Shown here one piece after another: positions 16,692-21,970 of a DNA stretch of 62,227 nucleotides (positions are counted from its first letter, which is position 1; every line of letters starts with the position of its first letter). Below the pieces are notes generated by a model. The model did no database searches. It had not been told where the DNA came from and saw nothing but the letters and a program-made list of their open reading frames with translations. The translations under genes were made by a program, and so were the position numbers. This DNA is from Mollicutes bacterium (GTDB taxonomy: Bacteria; Bacillota_I; Bacilli_A; RF39; UBA660), in contig JAAYPA010000020.1 of the NCBI GenBank assembly GCA_012520055.1, forward strand, positions 1-62,227, in the 5' to 3' direction.

Positions 16692-17109
16692 TCGTAAAGC
16701 TTATTTTGATTATTTTGTGGAAAAAGAAGAAGAAGCAGGCATTTCTTTAACCGGTACCGAAATCAAATCAGTACGCAAAGGAAGTGTTGATTTAAAAGAT
16801 TCCTATGTCAGAATAAGAAATGGTGAAGCTTTTGTTATAAACCTGTATATTGCTAAATATGAAGAAGGTAATAGATTTAATCATGATGAAAGAAGAACCA
16901 GAAAATTATTACTCCATAAAAAAGAAATAAAAAAACTATATGATGATGCTAATGTAGATGGTTATACTCTAATTCCTTTAAAAATGTATTTAAAAAATGG
17001 TAAAGCTAAATTATTAATAGGAATATGTAAAGGAAAACATACCTATGACAAAAGACAATCTTTAAAAGAAAAAGAATTAAAAAAGGAATCGAGAATCAAT
17101 GTTTATTAA
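16678..17109 (+). CDS. smpB: SsrA-binding protein SmpB
   Basis: '[27 protein letters not shown]', '[12 protein letters not shown]'. It overlaps the rnr 3' end. Confidence 0.95.
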
Positions 17110-18925
17110 AAAATTGTTTATAGTATTCATAGGTATAACATTACTATATACAAATAAAGTTGAAGGTTTAAGTAAATCAGTAATTGATATTACCAAAATG
17201 AATCTTCAAGAAATCAGTGAAGCTTTAAATCAGAAAATAATTACCAGTGAAGAACTAGTAAAACTTTATTTAGAAAGAATCGAAGCTTATGATAAAGATT
17301 TTAATGCCATTATTAGTATTAATGAAAATGCAATAAATGAAGCTAAAGAATTAGATGAATTAAGAAGTAAAGGAAAAATTAAGTCATTACTTCATGGTAT
17401 TCCGATAATTGTTAAAGATAATATTGATGTAACCTTATTGCCCACTACAGCAGGTGCTAAAGCTTTAAAAGATAATTACCCAAAAGCTAATGCTTTTGTT
17501 ATTCAAAGATTGATGGATGCGGGAGTTATTATTCTTGCTAAAGCTAATATGAGTGAGTTTGCCTTTGAAGCAGTATCATCACGAAGTAGTTATGGAACGG
17601 TAAAAAATGCTTATAATCCTGAATATTCAGCATATGGATCAAGTGGGGGTTCGGCGGTTTCCGTTGCTTTAAATTTTGCTCCAGCTGCATTAGGTACAGA
17701 TACTAATTCATCAATAAGATTACCGGCAGCAGCAACCAATTTGGTGGGCTTTAGGCCAACTGTTGGTCTAATTAGTCGCACGGGAGTGCTGCCTTATGAT
17801 CCGGAAAGAGATACCATAGGTACTTTAACTAAAACTGTTGATGATGCTATGCTTATTATTAACATTATTAATGGATATGATAAAAATGATTATAAATCAA
17901 TAAATCAAGATACAAAAAATTATATTTTCCAAAAAAAAGACTTAAAAGGTATAACCATTGGTATACCGACAGATTTTCTAATCGGATCAGATGAAAATAA
18001 ATTACCGGAAAATAAAGAAACATATTCAGAAATTAAAGAATTAATGCAGCAAGCTATTGAGAAGTTACAAGCATCTCAGGCTAAAATAGTTTATTTAGAT
18101 AATTATTACAATTATGAAACAGATTACTGGTTTTTATCCTCTTTAAGTGGTTATTTAATATGTGACAGTTTTAATAAATATATTAAGAATACTACCGGCA
18201 CAATTAGAAGTTTCAATGATTTATATTTATCTAACGAAAAAATTACCTATTTTGGTGATTACATTGATTCATGTGATAGTCCGCCAGAAAAACTAGAAGA
18301 AAAAAATATTTTAAAAGAAGATTATCGTAAATATATAGAAAACATCATGATAGAAAACAATATTGATGTGATGATGTATCCTACTACTAAAAATAAATTA
18401 TTAAAAAGAGGTGCAACTACTAAATCTCAAAATTTATCAGCTCATGCTTCTTCTACAATCAATTATCCGGCTATTACCTTACCACTTGGTTTTGATGAAA
18501 ATAATTTACCATATGGTATTGAATTTATGGCAAAAACGAATGAAGAACAATTACTATTTGATATAGCAAACATTTATGAAAAGTTAAATGGTAATAATCT
18601 ATCCTCTCCTCTTGCTCCATCTTTATATGAAATTCCTAAGGAAGCAGAAGAATTAGTCGATAATTATAAAAATATCTTCAATAAAAACAAAAAAACCAAA
18701 CAAGAAAAATCATGGCTTATTAAAGTTCAAAATATTTTTCGAAATTATTCTGAAGAAAAAAATTTTGAAAAAATAAATATGTTAAACATAGAATATTCTA
18801 ATATAGAAAAAACAGTTATTTCTAAGACATTACCAATAGTGTATATTTTCATAGGATTGTTTTTTCTTCAAAAAATAATAAAAAATACGAAACTTAAGCC
18901 TAAAAGACTGAAAAAACATAAATAA
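17099..18925 (+). CDS. Amidase-signature (AS) family amidase with an N-terminal signal peptide and a C-terminal membrane anchor
   Basis: '[10 protein letters not shown]', '[11 protein letters not shown]'. N-terminus '[23 protein letters not shown]' and C-terminus '[17 protein letters not shown]' followed by a basic tail. Confidence 0.8.
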
Positions 18926-18979: not shown

Positions 18980-19687
18980 GTGATGGTGAAGTTTATTGTA
19001 GTTGATGACAATAGTGAATTTCAAAATATTATTTGTAAAGTGATAGATAATACCATGTTTAAAACCGAAGAAGAATATTATATTGAAAAATACAATAAAT
19101 ACTGCTGTGATTTACATAAGGCTATCGTGGATTGTTCAACTCAAAAAATTTATATTTTAGACATTGATTTAGGTCACTTACATTCCGGATTGGATATTGC
19201 TAAAGAAATCCGTAAGTATGATTGGGATGGAGAAATAATTTTTATTACCAGTCATGATAAGATGTTTGAAACAGTTTATCGTAATATTTTTAAAGTCTTT
19301 GATTTTATTGAAAAATTTATTTCTCTTGAAGAACGTCTTGCTAAAGATTTAAAAATAATCGTGTCTCAAAAAGCAGATTATGGGAAATTTTATTATTGTA
19401 ATAATAAAACGGATATGCAAATTTATTATAAAGATATTACTTATATTTACCGAGATACTGCCGAAAGAAAATTGGTCATTAAAACTACCAACAATAAATT
19501 TCTTTTAAATAAATCTATTTTAGAAATATCAAAAGAATTAGACAATAGATTTAAACAAGTTCATCGCGCCTGTATTGTTAATAAAGATCGTGTAAATATA
19601 TTTAATTGGTCAAAAGGCTACTTTATTTTAGATAATGGTGAAAAAGTTGATCTTTGTTCTAAAAACTTTAAGGAGAATATCTCGTGA
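18980..19687 (+). CDS. agrA: LytTR-family response regulator (AgrA-like)
   Basis: REC domain ('IVVDDN', 'ILDIDL') plus a LytTR C-terminus ('FKQVHRACIVNKDRV'). Confidence 0.85.
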   Translation: MMVKFIVVDDNSEFQNIICKVIDNTMFKTEEEYYIEKYNKYCCDLHKAIVDCSTQKIYILDIDLGHLHSGLDIAKEIRKYDWDGEIIFITSHDKMFETVYRNIFKVFDFIEKFISLEERLAKDLKIIVSQKADYGKFYYCNNKTDMQIYYKDITYIYRDTAERKLVIKTTNNKFLLNKSILEISKELDNRFKQVHRACIVNKDRVNIFNWSKGYFILDNGEKVDLCSKNFKENIS

Positions 19688-20946
19688 CTGATATAAATAA
19701 TTTCCCCGGTTTTTTAACTATCGTATTTAGTTATTTTGTCTTTTTATATGCCTATGGTTATTTTAATGATATTAAAGTTATAATCAACTATAAAACTTTT
19801 TTCATTATTTTGTTATCTTCAATTTTAATCTTTATTAATAATCTTTATAATGACCAATATTTAAAGATTCCGGTAGCTTTTTGTATTTTAACTTTTTTCT
19901 TTTATTATATATTTAATACTTCTATCTTTGAAAATATGTTTTTAAGTTTTTTTATAGGATTAACATCCTTAGTTGTTGAATTTATTTTATCTATTTTTGT
20001 TTGTTTAGCTATATTAAATATATCCGATATAAATGATAGTTATTTATTAAAAGATTGCTTTTCTTTAATCTGTTTTTGGATTTATTATTTTGCACATAGA
20101 ATCCCATTTATAAAAAATATCTATAAAAAAGCATTGAATTTTTTTGAAGGTGCCAAAAAAAGAACCATTTATATTTGTATTTCTTTATTTATTATTTATT
20201 TCTTATATACGGTATATGCTGTCGATTATCCCAATATCAGATTTTATATTTTCAGTCTTATTATAATAATATTAATAAGTACTTTGATTATCTTTTATTT
20301 TAGAGAAGTACACAACAACAGTGTTTTAAATATTAAAAATAAATACTTAACAGAAAATCAAATTATGTATAAAAATCTCATAGATGATTTTAGAATTATA
20401 AAACATAATTTATTAAATGATTTTTTATTTATAAGTACTTTATGTGATATTAATACTCAGCAATTAATCAAAGAAAAAGTATCAAAATATAATTTTAATA
20501 AATATGATTTTAATTTTTTTGATAAATTACCCGAGGGGTTACAAGGAATTTTATTTTTTAAATCCAGTATTGCTCAGAAAAAGAATATTGATTTCTATTT
20601 AGAAAATAATATTAATTCTGAAATTCAGAAATGTATCAAATTATACATTGATTTATGCGAAGCCATTAGTATTGCCTTGGATAATGCAATAGAAGCCAGC
20701 AGTAATGCTAAAATTAAAGCAGTTTATATTAATTTAGATGAGGATAACAACAAAGTTATCATAGAAATATTAAATACTTATAGTAATGATATTGACTTAG
20801 ATAATATTGGTAATAAAAATTATAGTACTAAGATAACTAAAAGTGGACTGGGTTTATATTATATAAAGCATCTAAATAAGGATATTAGTATTAAAACTTC
20901 TTTCATATTTGATTTATTCAAAATCCAAATTACGGCAATAAAATAA
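19684..20946 (+). CDS. agrC: AgrC-like (HPK10) membrane histidine kinase
   Basis: About 6 TM helices, an H-box 'FRIIKHNLLND', and a GHKL ATPase ('LDNAIEAS', 'GLGLYYI'). The start overlaps the regulator stop (GTGA). Confidence 0.8.
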   Translation: MTDINNFPGFLTIVFSYFVFLYAYGYFNDIKVIINYKTFFIILLSSILIFINNLYNDQYLKIPVAFCILTFFFYYIFNTSIFENMFLSFFIGLTSLVVEFILSIFVCLAILNISDINDSYLLKDCFSLICFWIYYFAHRIPFIKNIYKKALNFFEGAKKRTIYICISLFIIYFLYTVYAVDYPNIRFYIFSLIIIILISTLIIFYFREVHNNSVLNIKNKYLTENQIMYKNLIDDFRIIKHNLLNDFLFISTLCDINTQQLIKEKVSKYNFNKYDFNFFDKLPEGLQGILFFKSSIAQKKNIDFYLENNINSEIQKCIKLYIDLCEAISIALDNAIEASSNAKIKAVYINLDEDNNKVIIEILNTYSNDIDLDNIGNKNYSTKITKSGLGLYYIKHLNKDISIKTSFIFDLFKIQITAIK

Positions 20947-20965
20947 GGCTTTATAGCCTTATTTT
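20941..20965. terminator. Bidirectional terminator shared by convergent agrC and agrD
   Basis: Stem ataaggct/agccttat, loop ttat. Both stop codons lie inside the hairpin. Confidence 0.7.
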
Positions 20966-21063
20966 ATTAATGATTTTGGACATTCCGGTTCTTCAAGTAA
21001 CCAGAACCAAGAAGCTGCGGAATAGCCAATTGATTTTCCTAAAGCAGCTATCGCTTCAATCAT
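20959..21063 (-). CDS. agrD: AgrD-type autoinducing-peptide precursor (34 aa, absent from the ORF track)
   Basis: Hand translation gives MIEAIAALGKSIGYSAASWFWLLEEPECPKSLIK. SD 'aaaggag' lies 8 nt upstream, immediately after the agrB stop. The tail 'EEPECPKSL' matches the conserved acidic AgrD tail. Confidence 0.75.
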   Translation of the reverse strand: MIEAIAALGKSIGYSAASWFWLLEEPECPKSLIK

Positions 21064-21084
21064 GAAAACCACTCCTTTCTTTTA

Positions 21085-21681
21085 TTAATTCAATTGACAA
21101 TATAAATAATTATTATATGAAACATTAAAAATCTTATAAATAAGTGGTGTAATAAGTATGCTTTGATGTATTAAGGCCAAAGCAATAATAGTTGTTATAT
21201 CGCTGTCAATTAATAAAATTAGGAGGCTGTATATAAGCACAAAAAACATGGTATATAATTTTAATTTTGTACGATATTTTTCACTGGTAATCGGTCTTTT
21301 TGGTGTATCTGCCGGACTATAAATTACATATATTATGAGAGAAAATATAACTGCAAATATCTTTATAATAAAATTTAAAGAAATTACTGTTGATAAATAC
21401 GGTAATCCGATAAAAGCAATACTAGATAGTATCCAGCAAGTAAGACTGTTTTTAGCATGAAAACCAAAACTAAAACTTCTTAAAGGGACATAAAAGATGA
21501 AAAATAATAAGCTTTCCCAAAAGATGTCTAAGATGGTATTGATAGTGAAAAAAACGAGAAATCTACTAACATTTAGATAAATGGCTTCTAATCCATATCT
21601 TATTTCTGAAAGTTTAATATCATCATATTTATTTAAATTTTTAATCTTGTTCATAATGGAATCGACTACTATTCTTTTCAC
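21085..21681 (-). CDS. agrB: AgrB-type membrane cysteine peptidase (AIP processing)
   Basis: 'RSFSFGFHAKNSLTCWILS' matches the AgrB catalytic H...C region, and it has 4-6 TM helices. The start is uncertain (GTG 21681 preferred; alternatives are TTG 21696 and ATG 21654). Confidence 0.8.
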   Translation of the reverse strand: MKRIVVDSIMNKIKNLNKYDDIKLSEIRYGLEAIYLNVSRFLVFFTINTILDIFWESLLFFIFYVPLRSFSFGFHAKNSLTCWILSSIAFIGLPYLSTVISLNFIIKIFAVIFSLIIYVIYSPADTPKRPITSEKYRTKLKLYTMFFVLIYSLLILLIDSDITTIIALALIHQSILITPLIYKIFNVSYNNYLYCQLN

Positions 21682-21970
21682 TTTATCACCCGGCAATAAA
21701 AGAGTATCACAAAATATATTTATTGATAATTTTTATGTTTGAAATGTCGTATTTTGTAGATAAAACAATATCATTCTCACTATATAATTACAAACAATTC
21801 ATTTAATGCATCTTCTAAAGCTTTTAGACCGATTTCGACACAAATTTTAAAATTTTGTTGTTATACTGGCAATGTCACTTAAAATAAAACCCACTTAGTT
21901 TGCTTAAAGAACTGTTTTTTGTGATGTCTTGAGGCTGTACAAAATTTAGTTAGAAGGGAAGGTGTTATGC

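Follow-up and report, generated by a model that had tools for sequence, protein, structure and literature searches.

In staphylococcal AgrD precursors, the C-terminal tail always starts with Asp-Glu and carries conserved Pro, Glu and Leu residues at tail positions 6, 8 and 9 (PMC4774685). The lactone autoinducing peptide (AIP) of Staphylococcus pseudintermedius, RIPT[STGFF], is followed by the tail DEPEIPAELLEEDK (PMC4774685), and replacement of its ring serine by cysteine lowers the activity (PMC3673130). Besides S. pseudintermedius, Ser lactones are known in the form of GBAP and of Clostridioides difficile AgrD2, while a six-residue ring is known from Clostridium acetobutylicum (PMC12312760, PMC4916163). 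As such, the view of the initial annotation of the DNA studied here, namely that lactone AIPs are known from the S. intermedius group, has to be widened, since GBAP of Enterococcus faecalis, AgrD2 of C. difficile (NSA[SSWVA]) and the AIP of H. thermocellum are of the Ser type as well.

The locus analysed here lies in a stretch of 62,227 nucleotides with a GC content of about 27%, in the following called the window, and its features are compiled in Table 1. The presence of a 34-aa AgrD gene, as postulated in the initial annotation, could be confirmed: the translation reads as written there, a ribosome-binding site precedes the ATG (21063-21061; the TAA stop codon occupies 20961-20959), agrB adjoins on the same strand with a gap of 21 nt between its stop codon and agrD, and the peptide reaches 21.9 bits against TIGR04223 (AgrD family cyclic lactone autoinducer peptide; curated cutoff 19). 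This sole NCBIfam match spans AgrD residues 4-34, corresponding to positions 6-38 of the 38 profile positions. The exact peptide is further present in NCBI nr, and one ENA contig (L161) carries a 34-aa gene call for it. Judged by its sequence and context, the reverse-strand ORF at 20959-21063 is a genuine AgrD signal-peptide precursor gene. A GTG at 21072, which the ORF finder offered as an alternative start, was rejected as it falls within the AGGAG site, leaving the ATG as the start codon, and an antisense ORF at 20970-21065 on the forward strand found no support and was set aside. The Pfam search of the peptide gave no AgrD match at E <= 1, and a sub-threshold match to the Cmr2 Zn-binding family was dismissed as spurious. 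For the N-terminal leader (residues 1-12), an Eisenberg hydrophobic moment of 0.43-0.50, computed for this peptide alone, is suggestive of an amphipathic helix. Within the window, no second agrB and no second AgrD-like ORF were found.

Table 1. Coordinates of the agr locus features in the window.
Feature	Position	Strand	Basis
AgrA-like LytTR response regulator	18980..19687	+	Response_reg and LytTR domains
AgrC-like membrane GHKL histidine kinase, convergent with agrBD	19684..20946	+	PF14501 HATPase_c_5, E 1e-11
Palindrome (hairpin) between the convergent stop codons of agrC and agrD	20937..20968	.	terminator scan; 15-bp stem, -18.8 kcal/mol
agrD, AIP precursor MIEAIAALGKSIGYSAASWFWLLEEPECPKSLIK (34 aa; stop codon within the coordinates)	20959..21063	-	ORF reading; TIGR04223 match; equivalent small ORF 3' of agrB in 153/161 loci
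EEPECPKSLIK, C-terminal recognition tail that AgrB presumably removes	20962..20994	-	Pro6/Leu9 as in staphylococcal AgrD
Predicted AIP macrocycle S18-W-F-W-L-L23	20995..21012	-	Ser18 in the Cys column; end predicted from the tail rule
Ribosome-binding site AGGAG	21072..21076	-	8 nt 5' of the agrD ATG; read from the sequence
agrB, membrane cysteine endopeptidase/cyclase	21085..21696	-	PF04647, E 4.4e-35
Promoter-like TTGCCA-17-TAAAAT 5' of agrB	21844..21872	-	10/12 match; part of a conserved Ser-clade block (8 loci)

The genes surrounding agrD are those of an agr system. The agrB ORF as called comprises 203 aa, and since homologues mostly comprise 198 aa, it is likely that translation starts at the GTG at 21681, which would give a protein of that very length. 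Residues His80 and Cys87 of AgrB are invariant in an alignment of 32 homologues and appear to correspond, by motif position and not by direct alignment, to H77 and C84 of S. aureus AgrB (residues as cited in PMC4774685). A search of the PDB by sequence and by profile detected no homologue of AgrB. On the opposite strand, the AgrC-like kinase shows a full-length but weak match to staphylococcal AgrC (NF046015), the regulator matches AgrA (NF046049) with an E value of 6e-11 that stays below the cutoff, and the two genes overlap by 4 nt. This arrangement, with agrBD facing agrA-agrC, is well conserved, as the kinase is kept at the same position and in the same orientation in 111 of the 116 loci with enough flanking sequence, in clades with serine and with cysteine at the ring position alike, and every locus with sufficient flank retains an intact AgrB, AgrC and AgrA. 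Identities of 37-66% for the kinase and 49-89% for the regulator indicate a faster divergence of the former, in line with what co-evolution of sensor and peptide would bring about. The hairpin between the two convergent stop codons has a z score of -5.5, none of 200 shuffled sequences folds equally well, and it is likely a bidirectional terminator. Further upstream, 54 nt 5' of the regulator gene, the window encodes a 608-aa amidase-signature protein (17099-18925, forward strand) with a signal-like N-terminal segment and a hydrophobic, basic C-terminal anchor.

With regard to regulation, the promoter scan as a whole gave no more hits than expected from shuffled sequences, and the promoter-like site 5' of agrB may belong instead to the divergent csp gene. 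In the window (21700-21900, reverse strand) and in seven further loci (L001-L007), all with serine at the ring position, we observed conserved blocks 5' of agrB, namely AGTGAC..AGTATAACAA, GGTCTAAAAG, TATAGTGAGAA and TGATA, which might be regulator sites or promoters; the gene concerned could be agrB or else the divergent cold-shock gene, which is located on the forward strand at about 21962. LytTR-type direct repeats (at least 8 nt within 40 nt) were found neither upstream of agrB nor upstream of the regulator gene, and autoinduction is hence an assumption.

A prominent property of the window peptide is the residue at its predicted ring-closing position, Ser18, which is encoded by TCT (21012-21010, reverse strand). 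In order to put this residue into context, AgrB was used as query, yielding 87 homologues in the protein collection, and an AgrB alignment retrieved 80 loci from species-representative genomes and 80 from metagenomes, i.e. 161 loci including the window, in each of which the small ORF 3' of agrB was read by script. An AgrD-like ORF was found in 153 of these 161 loci. The pattern C-x5-[DE]EP, commonly in the form C-x5-DEPE[CM]P, occurs in 131 loci, the pattern S-x5-[ED]E..CP in the same register in 18, and a cysteine followed by six residues before the tail in five. The claims that serine occupies the position of the thiolactone cysteine and that the only cysteine resides in the discarded tail are thus both borne out, as Ser18 falls into the column that Cys occupies in 131 relatives and the sole cysteine, Cys28 (codon TGT, 20982-20980, reverse strand), lies within EEPECPKSLIK. 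The homologue alignment suggested in the initial annotation further shows that serine is not the lone mutation of a single allele among relatives with cysteine: all 18 loci with a readable downstream ORF and an AgrB at least 45% identical to that of the window carry serine at the ring column.

These Ser loci encode 14 distinct peptides, or 17 if near-identical cluster variants are counted. Their predicted rings are SWFWLL (shared by the window and P0095), SWWWLL, SWIWIT, SWFWLT, SILWIV, SYLWLT, SYFWLS, SIIWFT, SFLWFF, SFLWFC, SLWFFF, SYWFFY, SFFWIM, SMFWIA, SFFWIA and SLWWIA. A maximum-likelihood tree of 144 AgrB proteins places the Ser type in one clade (support 100/96) that requires a single change; the clade was recovered in 100% of 200 bootstrap trees, and none of 500 label shuffles scored as low. 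Its sister, L035 (C-LWWLI DEPECPKSLIK), is of the Cys type, shares the tail and closely resembles the Ser type in its ring. The family profile captures the Ser clade incompletely, since one member (L001) scores 24.7 bits against TIGR04223 and five others that were tested score 13.8-17, below the cutoff of 19. Ser-clade members of the latter kind may consequently go unnamed by the NCBI family pipeline.

The survey also brought up several loci that deserve mention in their own right. The five loci with a cysteine and six residues before the DEP tail (L010, L021, L024, L070 and L072; e.g. C-VWFWLA DEPEMPKSLIER) form a separate AgrB clade (100/95), for which seven-residue rings are predicted. One locus (L043:1770-2151) carries two tandem AgrD-like ORFs after a single agrB (...SMCPVGWIDEPEMSKNMIER and ...SSCAAGWFDEPEMSKNMIER), suggesting a duplicated signal gene, while in another (L117:584-1017) the agrB homologue is followed, in place of AgrD, by an ORF of more than 70 aa without the AgrD tail motif. 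The peptide P0100, a cluster variant of the L007-type AgrD found on one 599-nt ENA contig, has the ring S-FLWFC with cysteine as the last ring residue and could represent an error or a real allele.

From our point of view, these data are best explained by an agr-type quorum-sensing system of an uncultured digester bacterium, the AgrD of which gives rise to a six-residue lactone closed through Ser18, and we hold this explanation as a whole to be probable. Gene identity, operon context, the serine in the Cys column, its clade-wide occurrence and purifying selection on agrD are shown by the data presented here. With respect to the chemistry, AgrB would cut AgrD between L23 and E24 by means of His80 and Cys87, which would free the tail EEPECPKSLIK and leave an acyl-enzyme thioester. 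The hydroxyl of Ser18 would then attack this thioester to form the six-residue lactone S-W-F-W-L-L, some peptidase would trim the N-terminal, possibly amphipathic leader, and the AgrC-like kinase and LytTR regulator, which are encoded convergently, would act as the sensing system for the exported peptide. Cleavage site, ring size, lactone formation and the N-terminal end are predictions at this stage, as are export, autoinduction and signalling.

One could imagine that the mature signal is not a lactone at all. If the peptide were trimmed to a tail-less ring with an N-terminal serine, an O-to-N acyl shift could convert it into cyclo(SWFWLL), or it could be hydrolysed to a linear peptide. It has been reported that tail-less thiolactone AIPs of clostridia rearrange to lactams, and the fate of tail-less Ser-cyclised AIPs has been stated to be open (PMC8251862). 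An exocyclic tail is moreover absent from many AIPs in related groups, and the lactam would have the same mass as the lactone. However, the O-to-N shift requires a free amine on that very serine, and the residues preceding Ser18, like those of tailed AIPs, are of small size and rich in Ser and Thr, so that we regard a signal other than the lactone as unlikely.

The size of the predicted lactone follows from the register of the tail. If E24 is taken as its first residue, P29 and L32 become the sixth and the ninth residue of EEPECPKSLIK, in accordance with the rule of an acidic residue followed by Glu, Pro6 and Leu9; Ser18 is then located six residues before the tail start, exactly as is the cysteine in the 131 Cys-type relatives. 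By this rule the AIP would end at L23 and the ring would comprise the six residues S-W-F-W-L-L, which we consider probably correct given a cleavage site extrapolated from staphylococci. The six-residue spacing in all 131 Cys-type relatives argues for six being the norm of this family. The initial annotation had proposed the ring SWFWL and the tail LEEPECPKSL; of this proposal the acidic recognition tail stands, while the register is one residue out and probably has to be changed to SWFWLL and EEPECPKSLIK. It is true that five-residue rings are the commonest among characterised AIPs (PMC4916163) and that the register in this lineage rests on extrapolation from staphylococci, such that AgrB might cut after L22 to yield the lactone S-W-F-W-L and the tail LEEPECPKSLIK. 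Such a tail would, however, carry Pro at position 7 and Leu at position 10 instead of the staphylococcal positions 6 and 9, and as the D-E pair is found six residues after the cysteine in 131 relatives, tails throughout the family would have to start with a hydrophobic residue. In addition, the five relatives with a cysteine and six residues before DEP show that rings of this family vary towards greater length, and altogether a five-residue ring seems quite unlikely.

Ser18 is also by far the best candidate for the ring-closing residue itself. The nine-residue Ser lactone of GBAP could suggest a similar ring closed by Ser15 (SAASWFWLL), and the invariance of Cys28 in 17 of 17 Ser-type peptides could point to this tail residue in combination with a different cleavage site. 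Three residues before the ring serine, however, the clade varies between S, A and T (Ala in GATAS of L002), only the Ser18 column being invariant, and 57 of the 106 Cys-type relatives with the same PKSL tail have Met, Ala or Thr in place of Cys28, which is followed by only six residues. Both residues were rejected on the basis of conservation, which makes ring closure elsewhere than at Ser18 very improbable.

Several lines of evidence indicate that the serine is maintained. Most members use TCT or TCA as the codon of the ring serine, while L083, L087, L088 and L092 have AGT or AGC. The use of both TCN and AGY, which are two nucleotide steps apart or derive from TGY by separate one-step changes, implies that serine was reached or kept more than once. 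Between L007 and L089, whose AgrB proteins are clearly diverged, the agrD genes differ by eight synonymous and no non-synonymous changes among 30 codons, and agrD is under purifying selection. The agrD of the window is also identical to the letter in contigs of four runs from different digester, biogas and sludge studies. The notion that the change from cysteine to serine inactivated signal production, leaving a decaying or 'cheater' agr locus, can draw on the frequent agr loss-of-function variants of staphylococci and on one near-identical strain (ENA contig of 25469 nt) in which AgrD (P0089) has 31 aa and ends in ...EEPECQNH and AgrB (P0003) has only 153 aa, a combination that stems either from faulty assembly or from an agr allele that has decayed within the population. 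Given this selection, the retention of serine in 17 distinct peptides with AgrB identities down to 45% and with two codon families, and the intact agr proteins of all loci with enough flank, decay is hardly credible.

Apart from the serine, the clade differs from its relatives in further respects, as became apparent from the comparison of its 17 distinct peptides with 106 distinct Cys-type peptides. The Trp-rich core noted in the initial annotation holds true clade-wide, with at least one Trp in 17 of 17 rings (mean 1.41 per ring) versus 32 of 106 Cys-type rings (mean 0.35), and Trp is located at ring position 4 in 15 of 17 versus 12 of 106 peptides. The tail starts with Glu in 13 of 17 Ser-clade peptides and with Asp in 103 of 106 Cys-type peptides, and its fifth residue is invariably Cys in the Ser clade (17 of 17), while the 106 relatives have Met (51), Cys (49), Ala (5) or Thr (1) at this position. 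Since the Ser type represents one clade, these differences in Trp, Glu and tail Cys may simply be inherited. A serine hydroxyl is a poorer nucleophile than a cysteine thiol, and AgrB has four residues that are largely specific to the Ser clade, namely N53, P71, F79 (directly before His80) and L145; these four are the sole AgrB changes seen in the clade. One could speculate that the signal of the clade is a Trp-anchored six-residue lactone of the type S-x-x-W-hydrophobic-x with a chemistry undescribed for agr, that it would rearrange by an O-to-N shift into a homodetic cyclic hexapeptide if tail-less, and that the AgrB changes, F79 in particular, together with the invariant tail Cys are adaptations which activate the hydroxyl. 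We regard this scenario in its entirety as unlikely.

With respect to habitat, DNA runs from about 11 studies, labelled as anaerobic digester, bioreactor, sludge or biogas fermenter, contain the locus with a word share of 80-99%, and related metagenome-assembled genomes are mostly labelled 'Bacilli bacterium'. Several low-GC contigs with a Firmicute-type agr locus (L001, L002, L006, L035 and others) bear the titles 'uncultured Muribaculaceae bacterium' or 'Bacteroides helcogenes' and are probably mislabelled or mis-binned. In the only run labelled RNA-Seq (X10), the locus resides on a 7.2-kb contig which spans the convergent genes, so that this run probably represents DNA, and none of the sampled locus words was present in three true metatranscriptome runs.

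Compared with the described systems, the locus shares with that of S. pseudintermedius and S. intermedius the serine at the ring column, a similar tail (DEPEIPAEL versus EEPECPKSL in the window, both with Pro6 and Leu9), an N-terminal leader that in the window may be amphipathic as well, and an adjoining AgrB with catalytic His and Cys. It differs from this system in the ring, which has five residues in the staphylococci and a predicted six in the window, where it is Trp-rich and fully hydrophobic, as well as in gene order, since the staphylococci have a co-oriented agrBDCA operon with RNAIII whereas agrBD of the window converges on agrA-agrC; the organism is, moreover, uncultured and non-staphylococcal. 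The AgrD of C. acetobutylicum ([CVLVTL]) resembles that of the window in its six-residue macrocycle and in the separate transcription units of agrBD and agrCA (PMC12312760, PMC4916163), but its ring is a thiolactone closed via cysteine. FsrD/GBAP of E. faecalis (QN[SPNIFGQWM]) combines a Ser-closed lactone, which is only predicted in the window, with an AgrB-type enzyme and AgrC/AgrA-type sensing, and is set apart by its nine-residue ring and by the location of fsrD in frame within fsrB. The C. difficile AgrD2 peptide and the Ser-type AIP of H. thermocellum likewise have serine at the ring column and originate from non-staphylococcal Firmicutes, but their rings comprise five residues and they belong to other lineages with other tails. 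The closest resemblance in length, six-residue spacing, PECPKSLIK tail and convergent locus is found in the Cys-type AgrDs of related uncultured Bacilli (L035, and L026 with C-FVVIV DEPECPKSLIK), which differ from the Ser clade in their Cys ring residue, a mostly D-initial tail and the rarer occurrence of Trp.

The clade-wide serine predicts an oxygen-linked (lactone) signal, i.e. a rare but already known type. The union of serine with a six-residue ring was not found in the AIP literature examined, and it is predicted to combine two variations that are each already known. What the present analysis adds is a whole clade sharing this serine. It comprises at least 16 predicted rings that differ from one another, every one of them accompanied by a matching AgrB and AgrC, and its members are neither staphylococci nor enterococci but uncultured low-GC Bacilli of anaerobic digesters and related habitats. 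In practical terms, the finding provides exact masses and sequences for tests with synthetic peptides or by heterologous expression, while the concept of agr signalling is left unchanged. For the predicted lactone, the calculated [M+H]+ is 833.4345 (SWFWLL), 904.4716 (ASWFWLL), 975.5087 (AASWFWLL), 1062.5407 (with SAA-) or 1225.6040 (with YSAA-), in each case 18.011 Da less than for the linear peptide. Since a Cys-using sister and outgroups exist in the same register, the clade further allows for a clean comparison of what AgrB needs for a hydroxyl versus a thiol nucleophile, and it raises the second comparative question of what leads a lineage to give up a reactive thioester in favour of the more stable ester.
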